In this document: positions 9,921 to 61,459 of the stretch, in pieces | Position numbering within the stretch: position 1 is the stretch's first letter | How the letters are laid out: every line of letters starts with the position of its first letter | Assembly: GCA_964512635.1 (NCBI GenBank) | Contig: CAZEJB010000004.1 | Coordinates: 51,822 to 115,821, forward strand | Origin: an uncultured Planctomycetales bacterium | GTDB lineage: Bacteria; 4484-113; JAFGCY01 | Length of the DNA: 64,000 nucleotides | Reading direction: 5' to 3' | Notes under the pieces: generated by a model | The model's input: the letters and a program-made list of their open reading frames with translations, nothing else | Database searches by the model: none | What the model was told of the DNA's origin: nothing | Position numbers and translations under genes: made by a program

Positions 9921-10412
9921 ATGAGTAAATTCGAACAGTCCCGGCTGGAAGGGCCTCACGCGTTGCTGCCGCGGATGGCAGGCGAGTGGGCCGGTACGGC
10001 CAAGCTGTGGTTTGAGCGTGACCAGCTGGTGGAGGAGAACAAGGTCCGCTGCAGCACCGCGGCGATCCTTGGCGGGCGCTTCTTACGCTGTGATTACAGC
10101 GCGAAGACGCAGGAGTTTGACAGCGAGGGCGCTGGGATCTATGGCTATGACATCCAGCGCGGACTGTGGGTGGGTTCGTGGGTCGACAGCTATCACAACG
10201 GCACGACTATCATGAACTCCGAAGGCGACGGCAAGGAAGTCGCCAACGGTTTCTCCGTGCTGGGTAAGTACAGCGACGGCCAGGGCGGGTTCTGGGGCTG
10301 GCGCACCGAGCTTCGCCTCGACGGTCCCGAGCACCTGGTGATCGCGCACTTCAACATCCCGCCGGGCGAGCCCGAGTACATCGCGGTGGAATACGCGATG
10401 GGCCGGGTGTAG
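9921..10412 (+). CDS. DUF1579-like (lipocalin-like) hypothetical protein
   Basis: 163 aa. AGGAGC RBS 6 nt upstream of the ATG. N-terminal HALLPRMAGEWAGTAKLWFE pattern recalls the DUF1579 family. Assignment from memory only. Confidence 0.4.
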   Translation: MSKFEQSRLEGPHALLPRMAGEWAGTAKLWFERDQLVEENKVRCSTAAILGGRFLRCDYSAKTQEFDSEGAGIYGYDIQRGLWVGSWVDSYHNGTTIMNSEGDGKEVANGFSVLGKYSDGQGGFWGWRTELRLDGPEHLVIAHFNIPPGEPEYIAVEYAMGRV

Positions 10413-31161: not shown

Positions 31162-31245
31162 ACAAGTGAATTATAACCTAGCCATATGTAAAGTATCGTT
31201 GACTAAGTCTAATATTGAATATTGCCTGAAGGCACAAACACCCTC

Positions 31246-32583
31246 ATGCCGCTGAGGGGTTGGCGCTGGTATGCCTGGCTGATGGCTGGACGCCATGGTG
31301 GTCGCGAGGCCGCCCGCAGATTCCATGAACTGGAGCGCAGCCAGTGGCTGGACGCGCAGGAACTCAGGCGGTGCTGTGAAGATAAGCTGCGCGATCAGCT
31401 GGTCTTTGCGGCCGCGCATGTACCGCATTATGGCCATCTGGGCCCCGAACCGAACCTGCATGCCTTTCCTGTGCTGACCCGGACCACGCTGCAAAGGAAC
31501 CTCCGAAGCCTCACGTCTCCTCTGGCGACAGCCCGGCGCTCCTGGCGGCTGAACTCCAGCGGATCCAGCGGTGTTGTGGTCAGTGTATTGCGGGACCGAC
31601 AAACTCAAAGCTGGGCGACAGCCTGTGCCTGGCGCGGCGACTGCTGGGGAGCAGATCTCCAGCCAGAGATGCGACAAGTCAGCCTGCTGAGCAATATCGG
31701 GAACATTGTAGGAAGCCGACGCGCACTCAGCCCGGCGGGAGCCTGGCTCCACAACCGCTTCGTACTTGACGGCATGCATCTGAGTGTCGATCGAACTCGT
31801 ATACTGCTGAAACAGATCAGTGAGCTTCAGCCTGAGGTGCTATCCGGGTATCCCAGCGTCCTGTTGGTTCTGGCTCGGATTGGCCAGCTTTGTGGATTCT
31901 CCGCTCCGAAGCTCAAAAAAGTCCTTCCAACGGCCGAGACCTGCAGCCGCGAGGAGGCTCAGGAATTGGAGCTGTTTTTTGGCGCACCGGTCCTGCAGCG
32001 CTACGGCTCTCATGAATTCAGCGCCATGGCCCATCAGTGCGAACACGGTTCATGGCACTGGCATAGCGAGGTACTTAAGGTTGAGGTCCGTGCGCCGGAC
32101 GGTTCAATCCGGTCAGAAGGCAGAGGCAGCCTGCTTTGCACTTCTCTGGCAAACCAGTCCTTCCCGCTGGTGCGCTATGAGATCGGTGATGAGGTCGATC
32201 TAACTCCTGTCGCCTGTCCCTGCGGTCGAGGACTGCCTACGTTTTCTACAATTGAGGGACGAACCAAGGACTATGTCTATTGCCCTGATGGCAGCTGGAT
32301 CAGCGCACATGCCTTTCTTGCAGTCCTAAGACGTCTGCCGCTGCTGCAATTCCAGCTGATCCAGGAACAGCCGGATATGTTGCACCTGCTGCTAGTAGCA
32401 GAAGGGGTAGTTCCGCAGCCACAACTTGATTGGATCGCAGCAACTTTCTCAGAGATTCATGATGGCAGATTAGGACTCAGGATCCTGCAGGTCGAAGAAC
32501 TGGAACGAAGTCCTGGGGGCAAGCTGCTGCGCATGATCAGCCGAATACCTGAGAATCTGCTTTCCGGAGGAACACCGCAGTAG
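31246..32583 (+). CDS. PaaK/CapK/F390-synthetase-family adenylate-forming enzyme, array paralog 1
   Basis: VPHYGHLG (cf. PaaK VPMYRRKF), P-loop-like SSGSSGVVVSV, and PLVRYEIGDEVDLTPVACPCGRGLPTFSTIEGR. ATG at 31246 gives MPLRGWRWYAWL matching the other paralogs; track TTG at 31222. Confidence 0.7.
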   Translation: MPLRGWRWYAWLMAGRHGGREAARRFHELERSQWLDAQELRRCCEDKLRDQLVFAAAHVPHYGHLGPEPNLHAFPVLTRTTLQRNLRSLTSPLATARRSWRLNSSGSSGVVVSVLRDRQTQSWATACAWRGDCWGADLQPEMRQVSLLSNIGNIVGSRRALSPAGAWLHNRFVLDGMHLSVDRTRILLKQISELQPEVLSGYPSVLLVLARIGQLCGFSAPKLKKVLPTAETCSREEAQELELFFGAPVLQRYGSHEFSAMAHQCEHGSWHWHSEVLKVEVRAPDGSIRSEGRGSLLCTSLANQSFPLVRYEIGDEVDLTPVACPCGRGLPTFSTIEGRTKDYVYCPDGSWISAHAFLAVLRRLPLLQFQLIQEQPDMLHLLLVAEGVVPQPQLDWIAATFSEIHDGRLGLRILQVEELERSPGGKLLRMISRIPENLLSGGTPQ

Positions 32584-32640
32584 CAGCCTTCGAACCAGCG
32601 GGCCGCCCTTCGCAATTGATGTCTTGCAGCTTAGGCGATA

Positions 32641-33984
32641 ATGGGGCGGGGCAAAATGGGATTTCGCACCCTCATTTGGAAATGGAAAGCCGGCCTGGAC
32701 GGCAACCCGGTCTTTTCACGCTATGACAGCCTGATGCAAAGCCAGTGGTTTGTGCCATCAGCATTGCGTGAAATGACCGAAGATGCACTGCACAAGGTTC
32801 TGGCACATGCCGCAAAGACAGTGCCGTATTACAAACGGCGCGGCGCCGAGCCCGCATCTATTGACTCCTTCGGCGTGCTCAGCCGTGACCAGTTGATCAA
32901 TGGCTATGCAAATCTGCAATCAAACCAGCCGGGACCCATGCCGCATTGGCCAACCAGCTCCAGCGGTTCCTCCGGCCAGCCGGTTACAGTTGTACTAGAT
33001 AAGGAATGCAACAGCTGGAGGACAGCCAGCGCCTGGCGCGGCGATACTTTCGGCACCGGATTGAGCCCCGATGCAAGGCAGCTTGCCATCTGGGGTAACC
33101 CGATGGAAGTTAAGCTCACACGACGCCTCTTCCAGCGCTTGCTGAACTACTATCACAATCGATTCATCGTTGATGGCTTCACTATCACCCCTGAATCGGT
33201 CCGTGAGATTCATCAGCGCATGCACCAGTTGCGACCAAAAATCCTGTACGGCTATCCCGCGTCGCTGCATGGCTTTGTGTTGAGCGCTCGCGAGCAGAAC
33301 CTTGAACCAATTCCTGTCTGGCGCTTGATGACTACCGGTGAGCAGCTCAATGAGACGCAAAAGGAAGCCATCGGCAATTACTTCGGAGTTAAGGTCTGCG
33401 AGCGCTACGGCAGCCGCGAGTTTGGCTCTATGGCACACCAGTGCGAATATGGCACCTGGCACATCCACCAGGAGCACCTGCACTTTGAGGTGCGTTTACC
33501 CGATGGGCGGATCAGCGACAGCGGCACCGGAGACCTGCTGGTTACCAGTCTGCACAATTACACCATGCCGCTGATCCGTTACGACATCGGCGATATGGCT
33601 GACCTGACACCCGCCGAATGCCAATGCGGTCGAGGCCTGCGCACATTCACCAGTCTGCTTGGACGGCCCAGCGAGTTTATCTATACGCCCAGCGGCGTCT
33701 GGATCAATGCCAACCACTATCACGTGCTGCTGCGCGATGAGCCGGTGCGGCAGTTCCGATTCATCCAGGACACTCCCGGCGAGCTGCGTATGCTGATCGT
33801 CCCGCGGGACGAGATGACGATGGAACGGCTTGAACTGCTGCGTCGTCAAGGCGAAGTGATCGCAAAAAATGAACTCAAGCTGCATCTGGAAGTCGTTGAC
33901 CAGATTGATCCGCTGCCGAACGGTAAAAGCCCCGGTGTGCTGAATCTGCTGCCAAGGCCGGCTCTGCCGGGACTTCTGAGCTAA
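32641..33984 (+). CDS. PaaK/CapK/F390-synthetase-family adenylate-forming enzyme, array paralog 2
   Basis: TVPYYKRRG, SSGSSGQPVTVV, PLIRYDIGDMADLTPAECQCGRGLRTFTSLLGR. Stop TAA at 33982-33984 overlaps the stop of paralog 3. Confidence 0.7.
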   Translation: MGRGKMGFRTLIWKWKAGLDGNPVFSRYDSLMQSQWFVPSALREMTEDALHKVLAHAAKTVPYYKRRGAEPASIDSFGVLSRDQLINGYANLQSNQPGPMPHWPTSSSGSSGQPVTVVLDKECNSWRTASAWRGDTFGTGLSPDARQLAIWGNPMEVKLTRRLFQRLLNYYHNRFIVDGFTITPESVREIHQRMHQLRPKILYGYPASLHGFVLSAREQNLEPIPVWRLMTTGEQLNETQKEAIGNYFGVKVCERYGSREFGSMAHQCEYGTWHIHQEHLHFEVRLPDGRISDSGTGDLLVTSLHNYTMPLIRYDIGDMADLTPAECQCGRGLRTFTSLLGRPSEFIYTPSGVWINANHYHVLLRDEPVRQFRFIQDTPGELRMLIVPRDEMTMERLELLRRQGEVIAKNELKLHLEVVDQIDPLPNGKSPGVLNLLPRPALPGLLS

Positions 33985-35294
33985 CGCCTGCTGACCAGGT
34001 TAATCACGTGTGGATTCTTGCCGCTGGGAAGGGGTTCAATGCTCTCTACCAGTCGAAGGTCCACCCTAATCTGCTCTCCATGCAGGCTGGCAAAATCGGC
34101 CAGCAGGTTGCGACGCATGTCTGAGGTCAGCTCTTGCAGGCCCTGCAGTTGCAGCTCGAGGTGATCCGGGGCATCCTGGATGATCCTGAACCTCTCCAGC
34201 TTGAGCTGACGCAGGAAGTTCGTATAGGCCAGTGAGCTGATCAGCCGGCCGTCCGGGATGCTGATGTGTTCCGCGACCCGGCCTTCAATGCTGCTGAAAG
34301 TCGGCAGTCCGCGTCCGCAGTTGCAAGGCACTGGCGTCAGGTCGACGATATCGCCGATGTCGTAGCGCAGCAGGGGCATTGCGCGGTTACTCAGGGTGGT
34401 GCACAACAGGTGGCCCTTCCCGGAGCCATTGATGGCACCGTCGGACGACTGGACCTCAACCACAAAATTCTCACTATGCCAGTGCCAGGTACCCAGCTCG
34501 CACTGGTGAGCCATAGTGCCGATCTCACGGCTGCCGTAGCGCCCAAGTACAGGGCAGCCAAAGAAGTCCTGGAGCTGCACCTGCGTTTGTGGGCTGCAAT
34601 GCTCAGCGGTGGGAATCACTTTCTCCACAATTGGCGCAGCCAGACCGAGTCTCTCGCTGATACTGGCAAAGGCACTCAGCGCTGAGACATAGCCGTAAAT
34701 CAAAGCGGGCTTAAGCTGCCTGATACGAGCGTGGACGTGACGTACGCTTTCCTCATCCATTACAAAACAGTTGAGCAGGTAGCGGTTACGGTAAAAGGCG
34801 GACAGGGCCTCCAGCCATGGTGGACGCGGCGCGAGATCCCGTGAGTTCCCCCACAGGGCCACTTGCCGCGCACTGGACTGCAGGTTTGTACCCCAGGGGT
34901 CGGCGCGCAGAGCGGCTGCATGCCGCCATGCTGCGCTTTCCATGTCATAGACCACTGTCACGGGCTCGCCGGTGCTGCCAGAAGAACTGGCGCGGTGCAG
35001 ATGAGTGTGGCTGGCCGCGGCCGGCTGCAGGCTGCTGCCCAGCCGGCCGAGTTCCTGTCGTCCCAGCACCGGCAAGTCTGCCAGGCTTAGCTGGCTTTGG
35101 CGGTCGGCAAGGCTGTTGTAAAAGGGGACTTCGCGTGCCGCGAACTCAAGGATCTGTGACAATCGCTCGCGCTGATACTGCTGCAGCAGGGGGCTTTCCC
35201 ACCATTGCGATTCAACCAGACGGTCGTAACATGCCGCAGCAAGCCGCCCGGCCTCACCACCGAACACCTGCCACGCCAGCCACCGCCAGTCCAT
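33981..35294 (-). CDS. PaaK/CapK/F390-synthetase-family adenylate-forming enzyme, array paralog 3
   Basis: MDWRWLAWQ N-terminus, EVPFYNSLA, SSGSTGEPVTVV, PLLRYDIGDIVDLTPVPCNCGRGLPTFSSIEGR. Confidence 0.7.
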   Translation of the reverse strand: MDWRWLAWQVFGGEAGRLAAACYDRLVESQWWESPLLQQYQRERLSQILEFAAREVPFYNSLADRQSQLSLADLPVLGRQELGRLGSSLQPAAASHTHLHRASSSGSTGEPVTVVYDMESAAWRHAAALRADPWGTNLQSSARQVALWGNSRDLAPRPPWLEALSAFYRNRYLLNCFVMDEESVRHVHARIRQLKPALIYGYVSALSAFASISERLGLAAPIVEKVIPTAEHCSPQTQVQLQDFFGCPVLGRYGSREIGTMAHQCELGTWHWHSENFVVEVQSSDGAINGSGKGHLLCTTLSNRAMPLLRYDIGDIVDLTPVPCNCGRGLPTFSSIEGRVAEHISIPDGRLISSLAYTNFLRQLKLERFRIIQDAPDHLELQLQGLQELTSDMRRNLLADFASLHGEQIRVDLRLVESIEPLPSGKNPHVINLVSRR

Positions 35295-35341
35295 ACCAGT
35301 TCAATATAGCCGTAACGGAAGGCCGCGGCAAACCATGACTA

Positions 35342-36679
35342 TCAACCAGCATTGACCAGGCGACTGTGCAGACGGTTTACTACATAGGGGCTTTTGCCGC
35401 TGGGCAGGACAGGAATAGTCTCTACCTGCTGCATCTCGAAGCTGAAGTCTGCGCCCAGAACCTGTCTGAAGTGCTCGCGGATCGGTTCCAGCTCCGAGGC
35501 CAGCAGCTCACGCTCCGATTGCATCAGGAAGGTCATCCGGCCTTCGTCCTCGATGATGAACCGATACTTCACCAGGGGCAGATGCTGAAAGAAGCTGTTG
35601 AATGTGCACAGGTTGATCCAGCGTCCGTCGGAACACTTGATCAAGTCTGAGACCCTCCCTTCCATGCTGCAAAAAGTCTGCAGGCCGCGGCCGCATGAGC
35701 AGTCCACGGGCGTCAGATCCACGATGTCGCCGATTTCATATCGAATCAGCGGCATCGCCCGGCTGATCAGGCTTGTACAAAGCAGTCGCCCGCGGCCCTC
35801 AGTAGAGATGCTCCCATCTTCGCGCTGGACCTCCAGAAGAATCAGTTCACTGCTCAGGTGCCAGGTTTTGTGTTCGCAGCGACTGGCGATCAGTCCCATT
35901 TCATTAGATGCATAGCGGTCTGCAACAGAGCAACCAAAGAACTCCTCCATCCGGGAGCTGTCTTCGAGGCTGCATTGTTCGCCGCAAGGCACGACCTTTT
36001 CAAAACGCCAGGGCGAAATCCCGGCCCGGCGTCCAAAGTGCATGAATGCCTGTATAGCTGTGGTTGGTCCATAGAGCAACCGCGATCTGGTCCAGGCAAA
36101 ATGCTTGTTGAGCTCAGTGGCTCGTGCCTCGTTCATTTCGAAGCAGTTAAAGATGTAGCGATTGAAGAGGCGGTCAAAGAGCTTTGCCTTGATGCCCCTG
36201 ACTTTTCCTGAATCGCGCGCGCTGGCCCAAAGCCCTGCCTGTGGATCTGTTGGACGCAGGCTGGTCCCCCACAGGTCGCCGCGCAGGAGAGCGGCCCGTC
36301 GCAAGGCCTGCGCTGCAGCATCGACATAGACCGTGACCGGTTCGCCAGTGGAGCCCCCGGTGTTCCAGCGCGTGATTCGCCCTTCGTTCTGGTGCGGCGC
36401 CAGCAGCTCTTCAGCATGCCTGCGCAGCATTGCGCGTGTGATGACGGGGAAAGCTTCGAGTTTTGGGCTCAGATAGAGATTTCTGTAGTACGGAACAGCG
36501 CTCACCGCAAAATGCAATGTCTCTTCCAGGCGCTGTGCCCGTAGTTGTTCCAGTTGGCCCGGTGTCAACCACTGGCTTTGCAGCAACTGGTCGTAAGCGA
36601 GCGCGGTCGACCGCCAGATTTCGGGGTCATATATCTGCCAGGCCAGCCAGCGCCAGTCCACAGCTGAATCATAGCGCAA
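35342..36679 (-). CDS. PaaK/CapK/F390-synthetase-family adenylate-forming enzyme, array paralog 4
   Basis: VDWRWLAWQ, AVPYYRNLY, TGGSTGEPVTVY, PLIRYEIGDIVDLTPVDCSCGRGLQTFCSMEGR. Confidence 0.7.
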   Translation of the reverse strand: MRYDSAVDWRWLAWQIYDPEIWRSTALAYDQLLQSQWLTPGQLEQLRAQRLEETLHFAVSAVPYYRNLYLSPKLEAFPVITRAMLRRHAEELLAPHQNEGRITRWNTGGSTGEPVTVYVDAAAQALRRAALLRGDLWGTSLRPTDPQAGLWASARDSGKVRGIKAKLFDRLFNRYIFNCFEMNEARATELNKHFAWTRSRLLYGPTTAIQAFMHFGRRAGISPWRFEKVVPCGEQCSLEDSSRMEEFFGCSVADRYASNEMGLIASRCEHKTWHLSSELILLEVQREDGSISTEGRGRLLCTSLISRAMPLIRYEIGDIVDLTPVDCSCGRGLQTFCSMEGRVSDLIKCSDGRWINLCTFNSFFQHLPLVKYRFIIEDEGRMTFLMQSERELLASELEPIREHFRQVLGADFSFEMQQVETIPVLPSGKSPYVVNRLHSRLVNAG

Positions 36680-36691
36680 CTGTGATAGGGA

Positions 36692-37972
36692 CTATTGGAC
36701 GCTGCTGTTGTCGCGCTTCAGGAGATTCACGATGTGCGGGCTCTTGCCGCTGACCAATGGAGGGATTTCTTCGAGCTGCTCAAAGTCGACCCGGATCTGC
36801 CCTTGGAACAGTCGCTCAAAGCTCTCCAGTAGCTGGGCCCTGATCGAGCCATCAATCTGCCCTTGATACTCGAACTGCAGTGTGATGTGGTCAATGCTGT
36901 CCTGCACGATTCTGAACTTGCTGAACGGAGCAAGACGCAGGAAGCGTGTGAAGGCCATGCTGGAAATCCAGCGGCCGTCGGGACAGTAGACATGCTCGGC
37001 TACACGGCCTTCAATACTGCGGAATGTGGGCAGGCCGCGGCCGCAGGGGCAGTCGACGCCGTCGAGGTCCAGCAGGTCGCGGATGTCATAACGTATCGTC
37101 GGCATCAGACGATTGCTGAGGCTGGTACAAAGCAGGCTTCCCTGGCCGCTCTCGCTGATGCTGCCGTCAGGATGCTGAACCTCCAGGTAGAGGTGCTCGC
37201 AGTTCACATGCCAGTTGCCGTATTCACACTGGTGTCCCATCGGGCCCATCTCGCGTGACGCGTAACGTTCCAGTACTGCCGAGCCCTTGAAGAAATCCTG
37301 GATGTCGGCGCGGGCCTCTGGCGTGCACTGCTCGGCCGTTGGCATGACTTTTTCGATGTAAGGCGGGCGGAGGCCAAGTTCCCGGGCAAAGCGGATGTAG
37401 CCGACAAGCGAAGAAACATAGCCATAGAGAAACCGCGGTCGCCGGCGCAGAAGTTCGCGATGGATTCGCTGCGCCTGCTGTTGATCGATGATCCAGCAAT
37501 GGATGATCCAGCGGTTGTAAAGCCAGTCGTAAGCCCGGCTGCGAAGACTGGCACTCTGGCGTGAATCTCGCGGGTTGCCCCAGAGGCTCACGGTCGGGTC
37601 GGTCGGCCCGAAGCCTGCACCCCAGCTGTCGCTTCGATACAACGCGGCCCTTCGCCAGGCGAAGGTCTGTTCATCAAAATGGATGGTCGCCGGCTCACCT
37701 GTGCTTCCGCTGCTGGTGCCTTCGTAGCGCTTGCCAAGCGGCGGCGTATCAGAGTGCAGTCTGCGGGCCTCACGGGTAATCAGCTGTCGCGACAGGACCG
37801 GGAATTCTCGGATGTCGGCGGAAAGCCCCAGCTCACGGTAATAAGGCACAGTGTTAGCTGCGTGCTCAACAACGCCCCGCAATTGTTCGCGCTGATAGCG
37901 CTGCAGCTCCTCTGTGGGCCACCACTGGCTCTGCAAACACCAGTCGTAGCGCTGCGCAATGTGGCGGGCCAC
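36692..37972 (-). CDS. PaaK/CapK/F390-synthetase-family adenylate-forming enzyme, array paralog 5
   Basis: Shortest N-terminus (lacks the WRWLAWQ motif). TVPYYRELG, SSGSTGEPATIH, PTIRYDIRDLLDLDGVDCPCGRGLPTFRSIEGR. Confidence 0.7.
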   Translation of the reverse strand: MARHIAQRYDWCLQSQWWPTEELQRYQREQLRGVVEHAANTVPYYRELGLSADIREFPVLSRQLITREARRLHSDTPPLGKRYEGTSSGSTGEPATIHFDEQTFAWRRAALYRSDSWGAGFGPTDPTVSLWGNPRDSRQSASLRSRAYDWLYNRWIIHCWIIDQQQAQRIHRELLRRRPRFLYGYVSSLVGYIRFARELGLRPPYIEKVMPTAEQCTPEARADIQDFFKGSAVLERYASREMGPMGHQCEYGNWHVNCEHLYLEVQHPDGSISESGQGSLLCTSLSNRLMPTIRYDIRDLLDLDGVDCPCGRGLPTFRSIEGRVAEHVYCPDGRWISSMAFTRFLRLAPFSKFRIVQDSIDHITLQFEYQGQIDGSIRAQLLESFERLFQGQIRVDFEQLEEIPPLVSGKSPHIVNLLKRDNSSVQ

Positions 37973-38050
37973 ATCGCCGCCGTAGATTTGCCAGGCTGTC
38001 CAGCGCCAGTCCAGACTGCGAATGATAGCGCAGTGCAGGCGACAGACTGC

Positions 38051-39412
38051 TTATGGATTGGCGGCCGAGGGCACAGGCAATCCGGCACTTTGACGGTGCA
38101 GCATGTTTATGACGATTGGGTCTTTTCCGTTGGATAAGGGTTCGATTCGTTCCACGACCTGAATTCGGAGTTTCATGCTGCTTCCTATATGCTTGAGAAA
38201 GAGTGCTTCGACCTGCAGGGCTAAGTCCTCCGGGACCGGCTCATGACCTTGCACCTGTATCGTAACCAGGGACTCAGTCTCCTGAATAACCCGATATTTG
38301 CTAAAGGCCATGCGCCGGAGTGGCATGATGAAGGACCAGGGACTCAGCCAGTGGCCATCTGACGTGAAGAGCTGCTCGGAGATTCGCCCGTCGAGGCCAG
38401 TCATCGTCGGCAGGCCGCGTCCACAGGGGCAGTGCACCGGCGTCAGGTCAACCATGTCGCCGATCTCGTATCGAATGAGCGGCATGGCACGGTTGTCCAG
38501 ACTTGTCGCCAGCAGGCTGCCGTATCCCGATCTGGCGATTGCGCCGTCCTGGCGCTTTACCTCCAGCAGCAGGTTCTCGCTGTGCAAATGCCAGGTGCCA
38601 TGCTCGCAGCGGTGGGCAATGGGGCCCAGTTCAGCGGCACCGTAGCGGTCGACAACGAGGCAACCGAAGAACGCTCGAAGTTCTTCCTTCGCCGGCTCCA
38701 GGCAGGTTTCGGATGTCACGATCACCTTGCTCATTGGCGGCGGATATGCTCCCTCGGCCTTCGCAAAGCGGGCGTAAGCTTCAACCACGGAGGCATAGCC
38801 GACCAGCATGCGAGGTCGCAGTTTCACAAGCAGAGTATTCAGTTCCTTTGCCCGGACCGGGTCAAGATCCACGCGGTTGAACACGAATCGGTTGTAGACA
38901 AAGTCATACAGCCTCGCCCGCAGATTCTGCTGGCTGCCGGCGTCACGCTCGCTGACCCACAACACGGCCTGTCGATCCGTCGGACGCAGATCCGTTCCCC
39001 ACGCGTCCCCGCGGAGCATTGCTGCCCGCCGCCAGGCCTGGGTGAGCGAATCGACCCTTGTGCTGACGGGCTCGCCGGAGGACCCGGCGCTTTGCCAGTG
39101 ATAGATTTTGGCGGATGGTTGCGGATCTGCCAGATGGCGGGCATAGTCGGGCCGGAAGCCCTGACGGTCAACAACTGGAAAATCCTCCAGGCGAGGAGCC
39201 AAGCCGAGCTCTCGATAGAAGGGCACTGTCTCAAGGGCATACTTCAGCAGGCGCTCAAGTTTCTGATTCTGAAGATCCAGCAGACGACCTGGCGAATACC
39301 GCTGGCTTTCAAGCAACAAGTCATAGCAAGCAGCCGCCTGTCGCCAGGTTTCGCCTCCATGCATCTGCCAGGCCAGCCATCTCCAATCCACAGCGCAGCA
39401 ATGATACGCCAC
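38051..39412 (-). CDS. PaaK/CapK/F390-synthetase-family adenylate-forming enzyme, array paralog 6
   Basis: VDWRWLAWQ, TVPFYRELG, SAGSSGEPVSTR, PLIRYEIGDMVDLTPVHCPCGRGLPTMTGLDGR. Confidence 0.7.
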   Translation of the reverse strand: MAYHCCAVDWRWLAWQMHGGETWRQAAACYDLLLESQRYSPGRLLDLQNQKLERLLKYALETVPFYRELGLAPRLEDFPVVDRQGFRPDYARHLADPQPSAKIYHWQSAGSSGEPVSTRVDSLTQAWRRAAMLRGDAWGTDLRPTDRQAVLWVSERDAGSQQNLRARLYDFVYNRFVFNRVDLDPVRAKELNTLLVKLRPRMLVGYASVVEAYARFAKAEGAYPPPMSKVIVTSETCLEPAKEELRAFFGCLVVDRYGAAELGPIAHRCEHGTWHLHSENLLLEVKRQDGAIARSGYGSLLATSLDNRAMPLIRYEIGDMVDLTPVHCPCGRGLPTMTGLDGRISEQLFTSDGHWLSPWSFIMPLRRMAFSKYRVIQETESLVTIQVQGHEPVPEDLALQVEALFLKHIGSSMKLRIQVVERIEPLSNGKDPIVINMLHRQSAGLPVPSAANP

Positions 39413-46423: not shown

Positions 46424-47374
46424 ATGGGAGGCCTGATGAGCGGGTCGAGGGAAAAAAAGCTGCTGGGTACGGCACTGGAAAGTCCTGAATCTCTGCTCGC
46501 ATTCAGCCATAAGGTTTTCAGCCGCTTTTACGATCTGATGCTCGCGGGCCGGGTTGACGAAGCCTGGTTGGCGACCGAGATTCACGCACGGGTGTTTCGC
46601 GCCGCCCCGGAGCGATTCAGCGAAGATCCCTGGAACTCCAAGCTGGCCTTCGCACTTTGCAAAGTCGAGGCTGTCGGCGCATTGTTTATGGCGCAAATGT
46701 GCCGGTTTGAGCGCTCGCTGCAGTCCTGTGAGCGGGCCCTAACAATGCTTCGCCAGCGCGAGAGTTTCGCGAAGCAGCGCGGAGAGAAGCCGGGCTGGAA
46801 TCAGGTGCGGATGTATCTAGTCTCAGCACTAAGCATCCTGAAATGGTATGAGCCTCAGTTGCGGGAAGTCCTGTTGAGCCCGCTACAGTTGCTGGAAGAG
46901 TGGGATGTTTGTCTGGAGGCATATAACCGTTGCCGAGACGGGCAAAAGGGCCTGATGAACCGTGCACATCTGTTGCTCTGCTTCGAAAGCGTTATGCGTG
47001 CAGCGCTCCTGAGCGGCACAATTTCTTTCGATGACTACAACGAAAGGGCTCGGGAAGCACGCGATGTAATCATGTTGGACTTCCCCTTCTACCCACATCC
47101 GGATCCTGAAATGCTGAAAACCTACTTTCATCAGCTGCCCTACTATTACTCGTTGTGCTTCATGCTGGAGGCCTGTTCACCCACTCCCACGACAGACCGT
47201 TTGAAGGAGTACATTGACCTGAGCTACCGCTCCAGTGCCGCTCTAGGTCTGGCAAACAGGGAGCCCCTGTTCAGAGATTACGCGAGGCGCGACTGTCTTA
47301 CCGAGTTCAAAATTGTTATGCGGCGGCTTGATCTGCGGCCAGACGCAACCGATCTTGTCGAGCGCGCCAGCTAA
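46424..47374 (+). CDS. hypothetical protein, islet paralog A
   Basis: 316 aa, all-helical composition. Shares with paralog B by eye: RVDEAW, APERF(S/R)EDPWNSK(L/M)AF, LLEEW(D/N)(V/T)CLEAY, YYSLCFMLEACSP. GGGAGG RBS. Confidence 0.5.
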   Translation: MGGLMSGSREKKLLGTALESPESLLAFSHKVFSRFYDLMLAGRVDEAWLATEIHARVFRAAPERFSEDPWNSKLAFALCKVEAVGALFMAQMCRFERSLQSCERALTMLRQRESFAKQRGEKPGWNQVRMYLVSALSILKWYEPQLREVLLSPLQLLEEWDVCLEAYNRCRDGQKGLMNRAHLLLCFESVMRAALLSGTISFDDYNERAREARDVIMLDFPFYPHPDPEMLKTYFHQLPYYYSLCFMLEACSPTPTTDRLKEYIDLSYRSSAALGLANREPLFRDYARRDCLTEFKIVMRRLDLRPDATDLVERAS

Positions 47375-47692: not shown

Positions 47693-48634
47693 ATGCCTGA
47701 TTCGCAGGTTGAGCATGCTCTGGCTCACGCGCTTATGAGCCCCGAATCGTTTATGGCCTGCGGCAAGTTAGTTACTCTTGCTTTTTTTGAGCTGATGATC
47801 GCTCGCAGAGTAGATGAAGCCTGGATCCTGGCCGACCGCTTTGCCCGGTTGTTCAGGGAAGCACCTGAACGCTTTCGCGAGGATCCATGGAACAGCAAAA
47901 TGGCGTTCATTCTGTGCCACATCGAATCGGCTGGCGGTTTCTTCATGGCGCGCATGTGCCAGTACGAACGGGCAATTCGTTCATGTGAAAAGGCGCTCGC
48001 CCTTCTCAGGCAGCGGGAGGAGTTTGCACGCTCGCGCAGCGAATGGACAGGATGGACCCAGCCGCGCTGCTATCTGGTCGGTGCACTTGGCTATGTAAAG
48101 TGGCTTAGCCCCAGGTTGCGGGAAGAGGTGCTGACCCCAGAGCAGCTGCTTGATGAATGGAACACCTGCCTGGAAGCATACCTTCACAATGGTGACGAAA
48201 ACAAGAAGCAGACAATGCGCAGCATCATGATCCTCGCCTTTGAAGGTGTAATGCGCTGTGCACTGCTCTTTGGCCTGCTGGATATGAACGCCTACAACGT
48301 TAAGGCACAGGAAGCCCGGCGCGCGTTGCTGGTGGATATTCCGCTGTATCCCCATCTCAGCCCGGAAGAGTTAAGCCTCTCCGTGATGCACCACAGCCAT
48401 CACTATTCTCTCTGCTTCATGCTTGAGGCCTGCTCACCTGCTCCCCAGACAGACAGGCTGCGGGCCTACATGGACATGAACTACCGCACCTGTCTGGCAC
48501 TCAGTCAGGCGCTGTGGAAGCCGCCAATGGGGCCTTTGCTCAAGCGCGACTGTCTGGCGGAGTACCGCATTGTGGCCCGCCGCCTGGCATTACGGGCGCC
48601 CGCGGCCGAGTCTGCAAGCGGCAAGGATAAGTAG
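47693..48634 (+). CDS. hypothetical protein, islet paralog B
   Basis: 313 aa. Collinear with paralog A at an estimated ~45-50% identity by eye. Confidence 0.5.
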   Translation: MPDSQVEHALAHALMSPESFMACGKLVTLAFFELMIARRVDEAWILADRFARLFREAPERFREDPWNSKMAFILCHIESAGGFFMARMCQYERAIRSCEKALALLRQREEFARSRSEWTGWTQPRCYLVGALGYVKWLSPRLREEVLTPEQLLDEWNTCLEAYLHNGDENKKQTMRSIMILAFEGVMRCALLFGLLDMNAYNVKAQEARRALLVDIPLYPHLSPEELSLSVMHHSHHYSLCFMLEACSPAPQTDRLRAYMDMNYRTCLALSQALWKPPMGPLLKRDCLAEYRIVARRLALRAPAAESASGKDK

Positions 48635-53904: not shown

Positions 53905-55185
53905 TCAGACCAGGGCCTTTAGTTCGGCCAGGCTGGCCGAGCGCGGTCGCATGATCGGCGTTCCGAGTGCACGGTTTAACACCAGCTGCGCCAGCATACC
54001 GATGGACAGTCCAAGGCCGAACATCACCGTGTAGTAACGCAGTTCTGTCAGTCCATAGTGGTACAGCAGCGGCCCCGTGATGGCGTCAACGTTCGGTTGC
54101 ACGCTTTTGGCCTTGCCCTGTCTTGCCAGAACCCTTGGCCCGACCTGGTAATACAGATCTGCGAGCTGAAAGAGCGTATCGTCCTGAATATGCTGGTGCG
54201 CAAAGCGGTGCAAGGCGCTATAGCGCGGATCAGTGCTGCGCAGGACCGCATGCCCAAAACCTGGCAGGACGCGTCCGCTTTCCAGAACATCCCAGCAGTA
54301 GCGCTCGATGGCTCCGGCCTCCACTTGCCCGTTCAGTTCTTCCTGCATCCGCAGTACAAAGCGCAGTGTCATCTCCGAAGCCAGCCCGTGGATCGGTCCG
54401 GCCAGTGCGTTAAAGCCGGCGCTAACTGCGTAATAGGCATCGCTATGCGCCGAGCCGACTGTGTGGCAGGCGAGAGCACAGGCATTGGAACCTTCGTGGT
54501 CGCTGTGCAACACGAAGTAGAGGCGCAGCAGATCAGCAAAGCTGCGGGCTGCCGGCGCACTATGGGTCAGTCCCAGCATTACAGCAAAACGCTGGCTCCA
54601 TTCTCCGGTTGCCGGGCTCTCTGCCGCAGCCCGGACGCGCCCGGAATCCCGTTGCCAGACTGCCGCGGCGAGAACAGGAAGCTGCGCCAAAAGGTTCAGA
54701 GCGTCCTCGAGCGTCGCCCGCCAAAGGGTTTCCTTGCTTAGCTCGTGGTAGTCACGAGCCTGAGTCGAATAGCGCTGGAGGCCCAGAGTCAGCAGGCTGA
54801 ACAGCACCATCGGGTGTGTATTCGGAGGCGCTGCGGCCAGTTCCTCCCAAACCTGGGCTGGCAGCCTGGCGCGGGAGGCAAGCTCGGCGCGCAGCCATTC
54901 CCGCTGTCCATCGGCTGGAAGTTCACCGCAGAGCAGCAGCCAAAAAATCTCTTCAACACTAAGCTGCGTCAGTTCCAGTACAGGCCGGCCGCGGATAAGC
55001 AGACCCCGCTGTGGATCAACCACCGAGGTGTCACAAATCACCCCAATCACGCCACGCATGCCGCCATAGACCTGGCCCACAGATACTGCACCGATGGACA
55101 GCTCTCCGTGGCCGGACATCAGTTCGGATCGCTCGGCGCGCCAGCCTGGGACAAGTTCACTCAGACGCTCGTGAAGAAGTGTCAC
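53905..55185 (-). CDS. gltA: citrate synthase family protein
   Basis: SVGQVYGGMRGV and LHSDHEGSNACA (catalytic His) follow the citrate synthase pattern. 426 aa. Confidence 0.75.
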   Translation of the reverse strand: MTLLHERLSELVPGWRAERSELMSGHGELSIGAVSVGQVYGGMRGVIGVICDTSVVDPQRGLLIRGRPVLELTQLSVEEIFWLLLCGELPADGQREWLRAELASRARLPAQVWEELAAAPPNTHPMVLFSLLTLGLQRYSTQARDYHELSKETLWRATLEDALNLLAQLPVLAAAVWQRDSGRVRAAAESPATGEWSQRFAVMLGLTHSAPAARSFADLLRLYFVLHSDHEGSNACALACHTVGSAHSDAYYAVSAGFNALAGPIHGLASEMTLRFVLRMQEELNGQVEAGAIERYCWDVLESGRVLPGFGHAVLRSTDPRYSALHRFAHQHIQDDTLFQLADLYYQVGPRVLARQGKAKSVQPNVDAITGPLLYHYGLTELRYYTVMFGLGLSIGMLAQLVLNRALGTPIMRPRSASLAELKALV

Positions 55186-55252
55186 GTTTCAATTGTATGC
55201 GGGAGGGGCGGCTAAAGCTGGCGCTGTGCGATTTTCCGAAAAACCGACACTT

Positions 55253-55738
55253 CTACTCGAAATCTACCAGCAAATCACCGGGCATAACCCGGTCGCCAGC
55301 GGCTTTCCTGAATGCAATCACCCTGCCGTTGGCCGGGGCCAGCACTTCATGCTCCATCTTCATTGCCTCAAGGATCAGCAAAGGCTGACCCTTGTGGACC
55401 TGCTCGCCGGGCTCGGCAAGCAAGGCAAGAACCTTGCCGGGCATCTTGCTGGTCAGGTCGCCAGGGCCGGCGGAGGATGTGCTGCTGGTTTCGCCTGGTT
55501 CAACAGCCTTGAACACAAAGCGCTGACCATCCAGCCAAAGCTCAAAGCCGCCTGGAACTGCCAGCAGATCAGCACTGATCCTCCGGCCTTCAAGCACGAA
55601 GCTCAGACGACCGGCATCGTGCTCAAGGCCGCTGATCGGCAGCGCGCGGCCGTCGATACGGACTTCAGCGCCACCGTCCGCAGTGCGCCGGAGACTTAGC
55701 TCATGCTGTTCGCTTCTGCACAAAAATCTGCGGTTCAT
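55253..55738 (-). CDS. biotin carboxyl carrier (biotinyl-domain) protein, C-terminal piece of an acyl-CoA carboxylase alpha subunit
   Basis: Biotinylation motif ILEAMKMEHEV. The N-terminal half resembles the BT/hammerhead linker of PCC/MCC alpha subunits. Start ATG overlaps the stop of the biotin carboxylase ORF (ATGA). Confidence 0.7.
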   Translation of the reverse strand: MNRRFLCRSEQHELSLRRTADGGAEVRIDGRALPISGLEHDAGRLSFVLEGRRISADLLAVPGGFELWLDGQRFVFKAVEPGETSSTSSAGPGDLTSKMPGKVLALLAEPGEQVHKGQPLLILEAMKMEHEVLAPANGRVIAFRKAAGDRVMPGDLLVDFE

Positions 55739-57264
55739 ACATTGCTCCAGTCGCCCATGCTCTGCCAGGGAGAAAGCAGGGCAGCGGGAGTTTCCGCGTT
55801 TGCACTCCCTCTTCCGGCGGAGGACTGTGGCGATGCAGCTGCGACGGCAGCAGCCAGCCAGACGCGGTCGCCCGGCGGCCTTGAGCTCCAGCCTTCAAGG
55901 TGCTCCGAGATAAAGCTGGTGCTCAGCTCACCAGCCTGGAAAGCCGGGTGCGCGAGAATCGCCTGGAGGTATTCCGAGTTAGTGGTCAGTCCCAGGACAG
56001 CGTAATCACGAAGGGCCTGGCTGGCACGCTGAATTGCAGTGTTGCGGTCCTGGCCGTGAACAATCAGCTTCGACAGAAGTGGGTCATAGTCGCTGCCAAC
56101 CTCCCAGCCTTCGAACAATGCAGTGTCCACCCGCACTCCGGGGCTTTGCGGCTCGCGATAAAGCCCTACGCGGCCGACCTGTGGCAGGAAGTTCTCTGCC
56201 GGGTCCTCGGCGCAGAGCCGGCATTCTATTGCGTGCCCGCGAGGGACGAGATCTTCCTGGCGCAGGGAGAGTTCCTCACCGGCGGCAATGCGCAGCTGCC
56301 AATGGACAAGGTCGACGCCATAAGCCAGTTCGGTGACCGGGTGTTCGACCTGCAGGCGCGTGTTCATCTCAAGGAAGTAGTAGTGCTGGCCGAGGGCATC
56401 CTGGCCCAGGATGAACTCCACTGTGCCAGCGCCCTCGTAGCCAACCGCGCGGGCAAGCGCCACGGCATCAGCGCCCATCCGTGTACGCAGCTCGGGGCCA
56501 ACGGAGCTGCTGGGGGCCTCTTCGATGATCTTCTGGTAACGGCGCTGAATCGAGCATTCCCTTTCACCAAGGTGGACTATCTGGCCGTGCTTGTCAGCCA
56601 GGAGCTGAATCTCGATGTGGCGTGGCCGGGTGATGAACTTCTCCAGATAGACCGCAGGGTTTCCAAAGGCGGCCTGGGCCTCGCGCCGTGCTGCGGCTAG
56701 AGCCTCATCAAGGCGTTCCGGGACCTCCACCAGGCGCATGCCTTTGCCGCCGCCTCCTGCGCTGGCCTTTACCAGAAGGGGATAGCCGAGCGTCGCACCA
56801 GCCTCGAGCAGCATGCTGACTGCTTCTTCTGCAGATGCATCGGCTGGCAGTTCATATCCTGGAACCACTGGCACCCCGGCGGCCTGCGCGGTAGCGCGAG
56901 ACTCAACCTTGAGCCCCATCCCTCGGATAGCCGCTGGCGGCGGGCCGATCCAGGCCAGGCCTGCATCGATTACCGCCTGGGCGAAGGCGTCGTTTTCGGA
57001 CAGAAAGCCATAGCCCGGGTGGACACTGTCGCAGCCAGTCTCCGCTGCCACTGCCAGCAGCTTGTCGCCGCAGAGGTAGCTTTCGCGTGGTGGAGCCGGA
57101 CCGATCAGGCGCGACTGGTCGGCCAGACGTACATGCAGGGCACGGGCGTCCGGCTCGCTATAGACCGCCACAGTGGCAATGCCGAGTTCGCGGCAGGCGC
57201 GGATAATCCGCACCGCGATCTCACCACGATTGGCGATTAGAACGCGTGTAAGCTTCGGGCTGAT
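55735..57264 (-). CDS. biotin carboxylase (ATP-grasp) subunit of an acyl-CoA/acetyl-CoA carboxylase
   Basis: VRIIRACRELGIATVAVYSEPD and ATP-grasp motifs. The track starts at GTG 57213, but the conserved KLTRVLIANRGEIA runs in frame upstream to ~57264 with no ATG/GTG/TTG, so the start is non-canonical or there is a local sequence error. Confidence 0.8.
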   Translation of the reverse strand: MSPKLTRVLIANRGEIAVRIIRACRELGIATVAVYSEPDARALHVRLADQSRLIGPAPPRESYLCGDKLLAVAAETGCDSVHPGYGFLSENDAFAQAVIDAGLAWIGPPPAAIRGMGLKVESRATAQAAGVPVVPGYELPADASAEEAVSMLLEAGATLGYPLLVKASAGGGGKGMRLVEVPERLDEALAAARREAQAAFGNPAVYLEKFITRPRHIEIQLLADKHGQIVHLGERECSIQRRYQKIIEEAPSSSVGPELRTRMGADAVALARAVGYEGAGTVEFILGQDALGQHYYFLEMNTRLQVEHPVTELAYGVDLVHWQLRIAAGEELSLRQEDLVPRGHAIECRLCAEDPAENFLPQVGRVGLYREPQSPGVRVDTALFEGWEVGSDYDPLLSKLIVHGQDRNTAIQRASQALRDYAVLGLTTNSEYLQAILAHPAFQAGELSTSFISEHLEGWSSRPPGDRVWLAAAVAAASPQSSAGRGSANAETPAALLSPWQSMGDWSNV

Positions 57265-57536: not shown

Positions 57537-57612
57537 TGGTGGGCCCGGCAGGATTCGAACCCGCGACCAAGAGATTATGAGTCTCCTGCTCTAACCGCTG
57601 AGCTACAGGCCC
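57537..57612 (-). tRNA. tRNA with CAT anticodon (elongator Met, or Ile2/lysidine type)
   Basis: Reverse complement GGGCCTGTAGCTCAGCGGTTAGAGCAGGAGACTCATAATCTCTTGGTCGCGGGTTCGAATCCTGCCGGGCCCACCA. Lacks the initiator features (C1:A72 mismatch, 3 GC pairs in the anticodon stem). Confidence 0.8.
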
Positions 57613-58852: not shown

Positions 58853-58926
58853 GGGCCGGGATTGTAACAGAAAGGCCGGCAGATGAAGGACTCACCTGCC
58901 GGCCATCGAAGGCTCTGTTCTGCTGC

Positions 58927-59568
58927 CTAGGCAGCGTTTGGCAGCTGGGAGTACTCGGCAGGGGCCTCATAGTCCAGCAACTCAACCCGCCCGGTCTCAA
59001 GGTAGTAGTAGGCTCCAACCACCTTGATCGTCCCATGGCTCACCATGTGGGCCAGGATCGGCTCGCTTTCCCGCAGGCGGGTGACAACCTGACGCACGTT
59101 CTCGCGCACCGCGTTCTCAACCGGATCTCCCGGCTGGCCGCTGGTAGCCTTGACCGCGGGGCGGATGTGTTCTACCAGGCTGAGAATGTGGCCCGGTGCT
59201 CCGCCGCTCTGGCAGGCCGCACCAACCGCTCCGCAGCGCTCGTGCCCCATCACCACAATCACACTGGAGCCCAGGTGTTCGACAGCATATTCCAGGCTGC
59301 CGATCACCGCGCTGTCGGCGATGTTTCCTGCGACGCGGCAGACAAACAGGTCGCCAAGTCGGCAGTCGAACACTTCGCTGAGCATGATCCGCGAATCGGA
59401 GCAGCTCAGGACGGCTGCGAAGGGATGCTGCTCGTAGGCAGTGGCCGATCTGCGGTCCTGGTCATTTCCGCTGCGGCGCACCTTGCCGTCGCGATAGCGC
59501 TGGTTGCCGGTCATCAGGTGGTTGATGACGAAATCAGGGTTGCTGGGTTCCCACTTGCGGTTGCTCAT
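58927..59568 (-). CDS. beta-class carbonic anhydrase
   Basis: Zinc ligand motifs CSDSR and HERCGAV. ATG at 59568 (MSNRKWEPSNPDFVINHL) sits 10 bp downstream of the MCP stop, with a GGAG RBS. The 70 upstream codons of the track ORF are Arg-rich and overlap the MCP. Confidence 0.8.
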   Translation of the reverse strand: MSNRKWEPSNPDFVINHLMTGNQRYRDGKVRRSGNDQDRRSATAYEQHPFAAVLSCSDSRIMLSEVFDCRLGDLFVCRVAGNIADSAVIGSLEYAVEHLGSSVIVVMGHERCGAVGAACQSGGAPGHILSLVEHIRPAVKATSGQPGDPVENAVRENVRQVVTRLRESEPILAHMVSHGTIKVVGAYYYLETGRVELLDYEAPAEYSQLPNAA

Positions 59569-59578
59569 TGGCTGGCTC

Positions 59579-61459
59579 CTAGACCTTGAACTTGGACACG
59601 ATTTCCTGGAGCTCAGTGCTGAGCTTGGCGAGGCTGGAGGCACTGCCGGCGATCTCTTCCGTGCTCGCCGTCTGTTCCTCCATGGCGCTGCTGACTTCCT
59701 CCGAGGCTGCGGCGTTCTGTTCAGCGACCGCAGCCACAGCCTGCATCGAGTTAACGACTTCAGAGGTGCTGGCATTGATCTGCTCAGCGGCGGCGCTGAT
59801 GCTCTGGACCTTTTCGCTCAGGGCTTCGACGCCCTTCACGATTTCACCAAGCACCCGCGAGGCCTGAGTGACAGTCTGAGCGCCGGCTGTAACCTCCTGG
59901 TCGCTCTTTTCCATCGCGGCCAGGGCAGCCTGCATCTCGGACTCGATGCCCTTGACCAGGTTAGTGATGCTGCCGGCAGCGGAGTTGCTTTCCTCGGCCA
60001 GCTTGCGCACTTCCTCGGCGACAACCGCGAATCCGCGGCCGGCCTCACCGGCGCGAGCAGCCTCGATAGCCGCGTTAAGGGCCAGCAGGTTGGTCTGGTC
60101 GGCGATGCCAGTGATGATGCTGATGAAGTCTCCAATCTGCTTGGTCTTGGTACCCAGCGATTCGACCACCTGAGCAGTCTGCTGAACGCTTCCGGCTGCG
60201 TGATTGATGATGTCCATCGCCTCATCGGCGCTGCGCTTGCCATCGGTGCCGTGGGTGGCCGCCTGGGTGGCGTAGGCTGCGACCTCTTCAATATCGCGGC
60301 TGACCATCTCGATCGCCTGGGCGTTCTGGCGCAGGTTTTCCTGAGCCATAACTACGTTCGATGTGGTGTCCTGGCTGCCGCGGGCGACTTCCTGAACTGT
60401 ATAGCTGACAGACTGAGCAGCCTTGCCGGTCTCTTCGGCACTGGCCGAAAGCTCCTGGCTGGCAGCTGCCACATGGGTTGCCGCTTCTCCGACCTGCTGG
60501 ATCAGGCGCTTGGTGTTGTTCTTCATCTCAATGAAGGCTTCAGTCATGACACCAATCTCGTCCTGGGCCTTGTTGTGAGGCAGGATTATGCTGAAGTCAC
60601 CCATGCTCATTGTGTGGGCCGCGCCGCTGAGCATACGCAGCGGCTTGCCAATCATCATGCCGATGCCGATGCTGAGCAAAAGGACAAAGGCTATGACAAT
60701 CCCGGAGGCAGTCATAAAGGAACCCTTGTTGGCCTCATTTACAGCGGTCGTGATTGTGTGAGCTTCCTGAATGACCTCAAATGCTCCGTGAGCCATGCCG
60801 GGCTTCCAGTTTTCCATCTGGTAGCCAAGCGGGTCCTTCCCGTCGCCAGTCTTGGAGGTTGCAGGATCACCGTGGCATAACATACATTCCTGGGTCAACA
60901 CAACTGCACGTGCAAAGCGCAGCTTGCCGTCCTTACCGCCCTTATAGCCAGGGATGGCCTTCCCCTTCAGCCAGGTGCCATCAGCCGGGACGGTTTCGTA
61001 CAGAACGCCTTCCTGTGCAAAAACGGAAGCGTTCTCCTTCCCCTGCTTGTTAACCTGCTCCTCGAGGTATGCCAGCATGGCTTTCTCGGTTTCGTCAGGT
61101 TCGTTGTCCGGGTTGCGCGGGTCGTTGGCAGGAACCTTGAACTCGTAACCCGACTCTTCGGCCTTGGTCTGGCCGACAGTCCAGCCGGCAACAACCGGAA
61201 CCGTCCAGTAGTAGCGGTCAAGGATGCTGTCTTTGGTTGCCAGCAACTCTTCTTCCTTGAATACGTCATGTTTGCCGCGCAGTTCGGCAACATAGTTGCG
61301 AGCGTTCTCAGCTTCCTGCGTAATGGCAACACCCTTGGCGACCACCTGATTGCAGATGCGCCGACGGACGCCACTTGCGCTGATAAACGCGTTGACGGCA
61401 AATGCAATGACGACCATCACGCAAACGGCGATGATGATCTTCGCTCCTACGCTCTTCAT
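59579..61459 (-). CDS. methyl-accepting chemotaxis protein with periplasmic c-type-heme (CXXCH) sensor domain
   Basis: N-terminal TM, ~200-aa periplasmic domain containing CMLCHGDP, second TM, HAMP, and an MCP signalling domain with the highly conserved [41 protein letters not shown]. Confidence 0.85.

Follow-up and report, generated by a model that had tools for sequence, protein, structure and literature searches.

Gene organization and receptor architecture

The window, meaning the whole 64-kb stretch of DNA that was analysed, carries on its minus strand a chemoreceptor (MCP) gene and, directly behind it, a gene for a beta-class carbonic anhydrase (CA). The receptor gene and the parts of its product are listed below.

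59579..61459, minus strand: chemoreceptor (MCP) coding sequence, 626 aa (from the ORF list; Pfam domains Tll0287-like, HAMP and MCPsignal)
61376..61444, minus strand: TM1, signal-anchor helix, aa 6-28 (Kyte-Doolittle 19-mer means up to 3.0)
60713..61375, minus strand: sCache_heme/Tll0287-like sensor domain, aa 29-249, predicted periplasmic
60932..61033, minus strand: clade-specific insertion of about 26 to 34 aa in the sensor, aa ~143-176, of low model confidence
60872..60886, minus strand: CXXCH heme-c attachment motif, C192-M-L-C195-H196, with H196 the presumed proximal ligand
60644..60712, minus strand: TM2, aa 250-272, leading straight into the HAMP domain (Kyte-Doolittle profile)
60515..60658, minus strand: HAMP domain, aa 268-315 (Pfam PF00672, E 3e-07, 31.1 bits against a cut-off of 25)
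59726..60229, minus strand: MCP signalling domain, aa 411-578, with the hairpin-tip motif at aa 466 (PF00015, E 1.4e-43)

The domain identity of the receptor is well established. The three Pfam domains each exceed their curated thresholds; the sensor region, for which the earlier note had suggested a Pfam check, matched the Tll0287-like family PF11845 over aa 33-230 with an E value of 2.9e-24 and 86.6 bits against a curated cut-off of 24.1. The MCP hallmarks, a PF00015 domain with its hairpin tip and a HAMP domain, are both present. The signalling hairpin comprises about 311 residues, and a sequence scan placed methylation-type motifs at aa 332, 556, 577, 584, 591, and 598. An identical MCP protein was found on two Logan contigs (SRR14271333/4) and one NCBI contig.

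The sensor domain is predicted to be extracytoplasmic, between the hydrophobic segments at aa 6-28 and aa 250-272, which lie close to the approximate positions proposed earlier (about aa 8-30 and aa 255-280). Because the HAMP domain follows directly after TM2, aa 29-249 must face the periplasm on this prediction. The sequence RRR stands right after TM1 on the predicted periplasmic side, contrary to the positive-inside rule; the assignment is left unchanged.

Conservation of the heme motif

The C192-M-L-C195-H196 sequence is the sole CXXCH of the protein and is positioned between the two transmembrane segments; from the protein's own composition, about 0.0004 such motifs would be expected by chance. 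A word-based search with the sensor alone against 5.8 billion proteins returned 40 relatives with identities of up to 42%, and the alignable full matches were all annotated as PF11845, many of them labelled MCP. A metagenome scan with the sensor gave no close relative, the best match being 39% identical. Across alignments of 24 and 38 sequences, seven residues, C192, C195, H196, P88, R115, N116, and M215, were invariant.

The count was extended to 105 sensor ORFs: those of 103 loci in genomes and metagenomes and those on the two contigs of the window itself. Exactly one CXXCH was present in each of them (105/105), and in 97 of the 105 the ORF also encoded an MCP signalling domain. The 80 genome loci had been fished with the pattern ME[NG]W[KN]xG[EDM]xH; since this pattern presupposes Met215 and His224, their conservation there is circular and was set aside, so that Met215 conservation was counted only from the word-based homologue set, while the CXXCH count from the pattern-fished loci is independent of the pattern. 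Conservation of the heme motif is thus established. The earlier note had placed the CXXCH in the periplasmic region of the receptor and had named a cytoplasmic or transmembrane position, or homologues without the motif, as grounds for doubting a heme sensor; the motif was found in the loop between the two membrane segments and was invariant in the 38 aligned homologues.

Fold and family of the sensor

A single-sequence search of the PDB with the sensor gave no significant match. A homologue profile matched the Tll0287 crystal structure 5b82 with an E value of 3e-12; in the alignment, PRNPDNEPD falls on the RNP motif of that protein and CMLCHG on its CLACHG. The 23-residue motif upstream of the CXXCH, aa 109-131, includes the invariant R115-N116, and the resemblance to Tll0287-like sensors that had been recognised in it is borne out by the alignment of these two residues to the RNP motif.

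The AlphaFold2 model of aa 29-250 had a pLDDT of 86.5 and a pTM of 0.84, with one weak stretch, the insertion (pLDDT 52-68), and predicts a Cache-type fold resembling Tll0287. The model places the CXXCH on a short helix (domain residues 162-168, corresponding to protein aa 190-196) that is flanked by two strands, one at domain residues 151-159 and the other at 195-204. The next-best structural matches in the fold search were ligand-binding sCache chemoreceptors. Ungapped extrapolation from the profile alignment puts Val89 at the place of Tll0287 Cys68, and the only other loop Cys is the nonconserved Cys36.

Pfam has long included the Tll0287-like family, which was given its functional framing in 2026. 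In a preprint of February 2026, DUF3365/Tll0287 was reclassified as sCache_heme; CXXCH was present in 99% of its >5,000 members, HAMP-MCP fusion was among the commonest architectures, and stand-alone His/Cys members, which are redox-like, were set apart from signalling-coupled members without an axial Cys (10.64898/2026.02.01.703092). Heme c has been experimentally demonstrated in three members of the family (10.64898/2026.02.01.703092; PMC8396549). The receptor has no axial Cys and is fused to HAMP and MCP domains, which differs from the stand-alone, His/Cys redox type (Cluster 1), and the lack of the axial Cys places it with the signalling-coupled sCache_heme group. It is clearly a divergent member of an already known heme sensor family with known MCP fusions.

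Its divergence is seen both in the insertion and in sequence identity. The insertion at aa ~143-176 is missing from most aligned homologues and is common to two UBP7 MAG homologues (L001 and L002) and to the receptor of the genome assembly GCA_020849855.1 (locus L106). The L106 MCP is 89% identical to that of the window; full-length identity of the two UBP7 MAG proteins is 52%, the nearest named genomes overall lie at 50 to 52%, and identity to anything outside the receptor's own clade is at most 52%.

Comparison with characterised heme sensors

The Cache_heme-HAMP receptor of Pseudomonas azotoformans, a signalling-coupled Cluster 2 protein (10.64898/2026.02.01.703092, 10.64898/2026.05.25.727664), has several features in common with the window receptor: a periplasmic single-Cache domain between two transmembrane segments, a HAMP domain right after TM2, and a single CXXCH on a short helix that precedes the last strand, with no axial Cys. 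The two differ in output, the window protein having a complete MCP signalling domain and that of P. azotoformans a bare HAMP recruiting a Ser/Thr kinase; in the insertion of about 26 to 34 residues, carried by the window sensor only; and in the operon partner, a CA in the window and the kinase in P. azotoformans. Tll0287 of Thermosynechococcus elongatus (5b82) is stand-alone and soluble, with His/Cys ligation through Cys68, whereas the window protein is membrane-anchored and MCP-fused, has Val at the Cys68 position, and is only 13 to 17% identical to it.

A likeness to the Geobacter heme-MCPs had been proposed from the sequence. It stands in two respects: GSU0582 and GSU0935 of Geobacter sulfurreducens (PDB 3B47 and 3B42) show the same order of transmembrane segment, periplasmic heme-c sensor, transmembrane segment, HAMP and MCP, and the Geobacter heme chemoreceptors have been put in the same family as sCache_heme (10.64898/2026.02.01.703092). 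It did not extend to the similarity searches, in which neither protein was matched by the homologue profile at E<=1 and both were absent from the top 50 to 60 fold matches. Their distal Met60 comes from N-terminal helices, where the window protein has no Met, and their crystal forms are domain-swapped dimers. The likeness is one of architecture and family, not of close kinship. DcrA of Desulfovibrio vulgaris, a chemoreceptor with a periplasmic c-type heme that has been proposed as a redox or oxygen sensor, is likewise comparable by description; unlike the window receptor, it carries an extra cytoplasmic PAS domain (PMC8396549).

Proposed sensing mechanism and alternatives

By analogy with characterised members of the family, we infer heme attachment, a ligand, and signalling through CheA as follows. 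Cys192 and Cys195 would form thioether bonds to one c-type heme, with His196 as the proximal ligand. Since the axial Cys of the stand-alone members is absent, the distal heme site should be labile; it may be occupied by water or perhaps by the invariant Met215, and its lability would let a diatomic gas bind or a redox-linked ligand switch happen. The most likely gas ligand is NO, a choice that leans on one characterised, distantly related signalling-coupled member: a HAMP-coupled protein without an axial Cys was reported to bind NO tightly, with a koff of ~6e-4 per s, and did not form a stable O2 complex (10.64898/2026.02.01.703092). Binding of NO, or the ligand switch, would shift the C-terminal helix, which runs on into TM2, and the signal would pass via TM2 and HAMP to the methylatable hairpin of ~311 residues controlling CheA, resulting in NO or redox taxis.

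Two other modes of sensing were weighed against gas binding. The heme may report periplasmic redox potential and not a gas, with a distal Met acting as an on/off switch and the receptor serving energy or redox taxis. Met215, part of a MENW sequence, is invariant in 38 homologues that were retrieved without that motif as a key and lies, in the model, in the loop after the CXXCH helix. The Geobacter heme-MCP sensors GSU0582 and GSU0935, which behave as redox/spin-state switches with potentials of -156 and -251 mV, are ligated by His/water when oxidised and by His/Met when reduced (PMC8396549). However, the distal Met of the Geobacter proteins is contributed by their N-terminal helices, whereas aa 29 to 127 of the window protein are free of Met, and the Geobacter domains were recovered by neither profile nor fold search; redox sensing of this kind is a possible, though unlikely, alternative. 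It is very improbable that the CXXCH is unused for heme and that the domain recognises a small organic molecule, as ordinary sCache sensors do. The Cache fold, with ligand-binding sCache chemoreceptors as next-best structural matches, would agree with such a role, but the CXXCH is invariant in all homologues examined and present in 99% of the family (10.64898/2026.02.01.703092), and experiments have demonstrated heme c in three of its members.

The chemoreceptor-CA unit

The features at and behind the end of the receptor gene are the following.

59576..59580, minus strand: AGGAG, resembling a Shine-Dalgarno sequence of the CA gene; it overlaps the stop codon of the MCP gene and lies 7 nt before the ATG (direct reading)
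58927..59568, minus strand: beta-class carbonic anhydrase, 213 aa, no signal peptide (Pro_CA, E 9e-42)
58864..58904, minus strand: intrinsic-terminator-like hairpin with a 13- to 14-bp stem and TTTCTGTT, after the CA stop codon (scan)
57537..57612: tRNA-Met gene, between the CA and carboxylase genes
55735..57213, minus strand: biotin carboxylase, 1.7 kb downstream of the CA gene
55253..55738, minus strand: BT/BCCP protein, on the same strand as the CA gene
53905..55185, minus strand: citrate synthase, on the same strand as the CA gene

The CA scored 143.4 bits against PF00484, for which the cut-off is 25.7, and its start codon is backed by two homologues (P0042 and P0043). The zinc-site motifs C56-S-D58-S-R60 and H109-E-R-C112 supply the ligands Cys56, His109, and Cys112 and the dyad Asp58-Arg60. 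A signal-peptide-like N-terminus was found in 94 of 111 other CA homologues, whereas the window clade has no such extension, and its CA is for this reason predicted to be cytoplasmic; judged by its motifs, the enzyme is also predicted to be catalytically intact. It has the Pro_CA fold, the zinc ligands, and the Asp-Arg dyad in common with the beta-CAs of the PRK15219-like group (NCBIfam NF011765) and falls below the cut-off of that subfamily (146.9 versus 221). The NCBI contig carrying the identical MCP encodes an identical CA protein as well.

The MCP stop codon TAG (59581..59579) is followed by the 10-bp spacer gagccagcca and the CA start codon, ATG, at 59568. A CA gene 10 bp downstream on the same strand, with its own ribosome-binding site and probably co-transcribed with the receptor gene, had been described in the earlier note; the spacer and the AGGAG sequence could be read directly, and co-transcription gained support from three loci, in which conservation of the pairing was traced from CA homologues.

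Window locus: MCP-CA gap of 10 bp
L106 (GCA_020849855.1): MCP 89% and CA 87% identical to the window proteins; MCP-CA gap of 12 bp
L107 (Logan contig): MCP C-terminal part only; CA 72% identical; gap of ~14 bp to the homologous ATG

A Shine-Dalgarno-like sequence is present at every one of these junctions, the equivalents at the same place being AAGGAAGG in L106 and AAGGATGG in L107. A GC-rich hairpin with a T-run follows the CA stop codon in all three loci; the stem sequences differ, and a downstream TTGYTACAATCC is conserved across the three. The window hairpin folds at -33 kcal/mol (z -3.5). Retention of the hairpin structure despite sequence change argues for an intrinsic terminator and thus for a bicistronic unit, so that co-transcription of the MCP and CA genes as a two-gene unit ending at this terminator is supported by the sequence comparison, and the anatomy of the operon is established. 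A promoter scan of the 247 bp before the MCP gene gave no sigma-70-like match; the only one lay upstream of a DinB-like gene. In a fourth relative, the CA is 66% identical and a partial 294-aa gene lies 81 bp upstream.

Distribution and genomic neighbourhood of the pairing

None of the 103 other heme-MCP loci, from genomes and metagenomes and including the nearest, 52% identical relatives, had a CA gene adjoining the heme-MCP gene, which agrees with the earlier remark that the pairing is unusual; behind the 52%-identical UBP7 homologue, the next gene is another MCP. The phylogenetic range is established to this extent: the MCP-CA pairing is confined to a small, narrow uncultured clade.

Gene order is the same in the window and in L106 for more than 10 kb, comprising GT2, DinB-like, MCP, CA, a small exporter-like protein, and a hypothetical protein, and continuing with biotin carboxylase, BCCP, citrate synthase, and Mfd. 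With synteny this broad, the two loci may simply have inherited the shared MCP-CA order. The ORFs of the 64-kb window included no che, flagellar, cytochrome-c maturation, or N-oxide genes, which makes the receptor gene an orphan MCP gene among housekeeping genes. A search of the window with Rfam and ARAGORN identified four tRNAs and no regulatory RNA.

Possible roles of the carbonic anhydrase

The most likely reason for the MCP-CA arrangement is co-regulation, or else an accident in the history of the gene order, without a mechanistic partnership. A different role for the CA, that of a housekeeping enzyme providing bicarbonate to the products of the biotin-dependent carboxylase genes nearby, with its place behind the MCP gene being incidental, is unlikely. 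Biotin carboxylases take bicarbonate as a substrate, and the biotin carboxylase, BCCP, and citrate synthase genes lie downstream on the same strand, in the same order in L106. Against this, the terminator-like hairpin, two unrelated genes, and the tRNA-Met gene intervene, from which it follows that the CA and carboxylase genes are not one operon, and no carboxyltransferase gene was seen nearby. A place for the CA within a carboxylase operon had been considered as a candidate arrangement and was ruled out by these same intervening elements.

Alternatively, the CA could be a functional accessory of the chemoreceptor through equilibration of cytoplasmic CO2, HCO3-, and H+, either because the receptor or its HAMP/signalling region senses CO2 or pH or because carbon supply is tied to NO or redox taxis. 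This is regarded as rather doubtful. The 10- to 14-bp junction and the unit's own terminator have been kept while the CAs diverged to 72% identity, which would favour it, and a second case of CA genes among MCP genes points the same way: in L110 (GCA_048498075.1), the gene order is MCP-CheW-MCP-CA-MCP-CheR-CheD-CheB, with a signal-peptide-bearing, that is, exported, CA that starts 11 bp after the preceding MCP, and L114, whose CA is 71% identical to that of L110, has the order MCP-CA-HAMP protein. The window and L110 CA clades are, moreover, not sisters on an NJ tree, which is crude. These points are set against the absence of any CA adjoining the MCP in the 103 other heme-MCP loci and against the independent CA neighbourhoods sampled, five of seven of which had no MCP; the seven include the window clade, and without that ascertained case the MCP link is 1/6, which is not significant. 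In addition, the window clade is syntenic over more than 10 kb, so its gene order may be simple inheritance; the window CA is cytoplasmic by prediction, whereas the sensor is periplasmic; and a literature search on a link between CAs and chemoreceptors gave no bacterial precedent.

That these two MCP-linked CA clades go back to one origin was also considered and was rejected on the crude NJ tree, on which they are not sisters. The conserved tight spacing and the second CA clade among MCP genes leave room for a real functional link. The CA embedded in a che operon elsewhere is suggestive, a lead and not proof of a link between CA and chemotaxis. The broader proposition that beta-CAs are recurrent functional partners of chemoreceptors, drawn from two non-sister clades with a CA gene a few bases after an MCP gene, is improbable; if true, it would mean an undescribed bacterial module for CO2, bicarbonate, or pH taxis, or a direct tie between the handling of inorganic carbon and NO or redox taxis.

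Taken as a whole, the reading preferred here, a class-I heme-c sCache MCP for NO or redox taxis together with a co-transcribed CA that is not its mechanistic partner, is considered likely.

Implications

The conserved MCP-CA unit, together with an unrelated CA in a che operon, suggests the testable idea that CAs sometimes serve chemosensory pathways, which is offered as a lead and not as a finding. If the assignment of the sensor is right, the locus adds to the heme-Cache family a divergent, insertion-bearing chemoreceptor from an uncultured lineage, and the receptor is a reasonable candidate for testing NO sensing by MCP-fused members.

Carbonic anhydrase lineage

A signal-peptide-like N-terminal extension was present in 94 of the 111 carbonic anhydrase (CA) homologues (P0045-P0160) outside the clade of the window CA, which is encoded at 58927..59568 (-), and absent from the four proteins of that clade, and this difference suggests a shift of the enzyme from periplasm to cytoplasm in the window lineage. 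In locus L110 (1..8711; GCA_048498075.1, JBEHYR010000048.1), which belongs to a separate CA clade, a beta-CA with a signal peptide lies within a chemotaxis operon, 11 bp after the preceding MCP gene, in the order MCP-CheW-MCP(4HB)-CA-MCP-CheR-CheD-CheB. On another contig, L114 (1..2386), a CA gene whose product is 71% identical to the CA of L110 has an MCP gene on one side and the gene of a HAMP protein on the other.

Flanking regions

Directly 3' of a terminator-like hairpin, a conserved sequence, TTGYTACAATCC(G/C)G..CCTTG, was kept in all three relatives (the window, GCA_020849855.1 locus L106, and Logan contig L107), with hairpin stems that were unlike:

window 58853..58873 (-), conserved element
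L106 ~8690..8712, same element
L107 1209..1232, same element

The element could serve the downstream Sm_multidrug_ex-family gene as its leader or as a promoter element resembling a -10 box. On the other side, only a 247-bp spacer separates the DinB-like gene from the heme-MCP gene in the window, where L106, whose heme-MCP is 89% identical to that of the window, has an additional 4HB-type MCP gene (4300..5982). In L001, a UBP7 locus with a homologous heme-MCP, that gene is likewise adjoined by a 4HB-type MCP gene.

Other genes of the window

53905..57213 (-), consecutive genes for biotin carboxylase, a separate BT-domain/BCCP protein, and citrate synthase
31222..39412, six successive paralogous ORFs of 426-453 aa, two (+) and four (-)
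46424..47374 and 47693..48634 (+), neighboring ORFs of ~315 aa each
9921..10412 (+), DUF1579 protein

The biotin carboxylase row, which has the same order in L106, includes a 4-bp overlap at the BT-domain/BCCP gene, and no carboxyltransferase gene was found near it; the called start of the biotin carboxylase seems ~14 residues short relative to the Pfam N-terminal domain. The six paralogues share 34-46% pairwise identity and an N-terminal SQW...VP(Y/F)Y motif, and none had a Pfam match at E<=1e-4. The neighboring ORFs, 51% identical to each other, also had no Pfam match.

Numerous ORFs in the window had no Pfam match. The closest MCP relatives were from MAGs of Nitrospirota and of UBP7, and one of the UBP7 MAGs was deposited under the name Planctomycetales. 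The lineage of the source genome seems to be poorly sampled.
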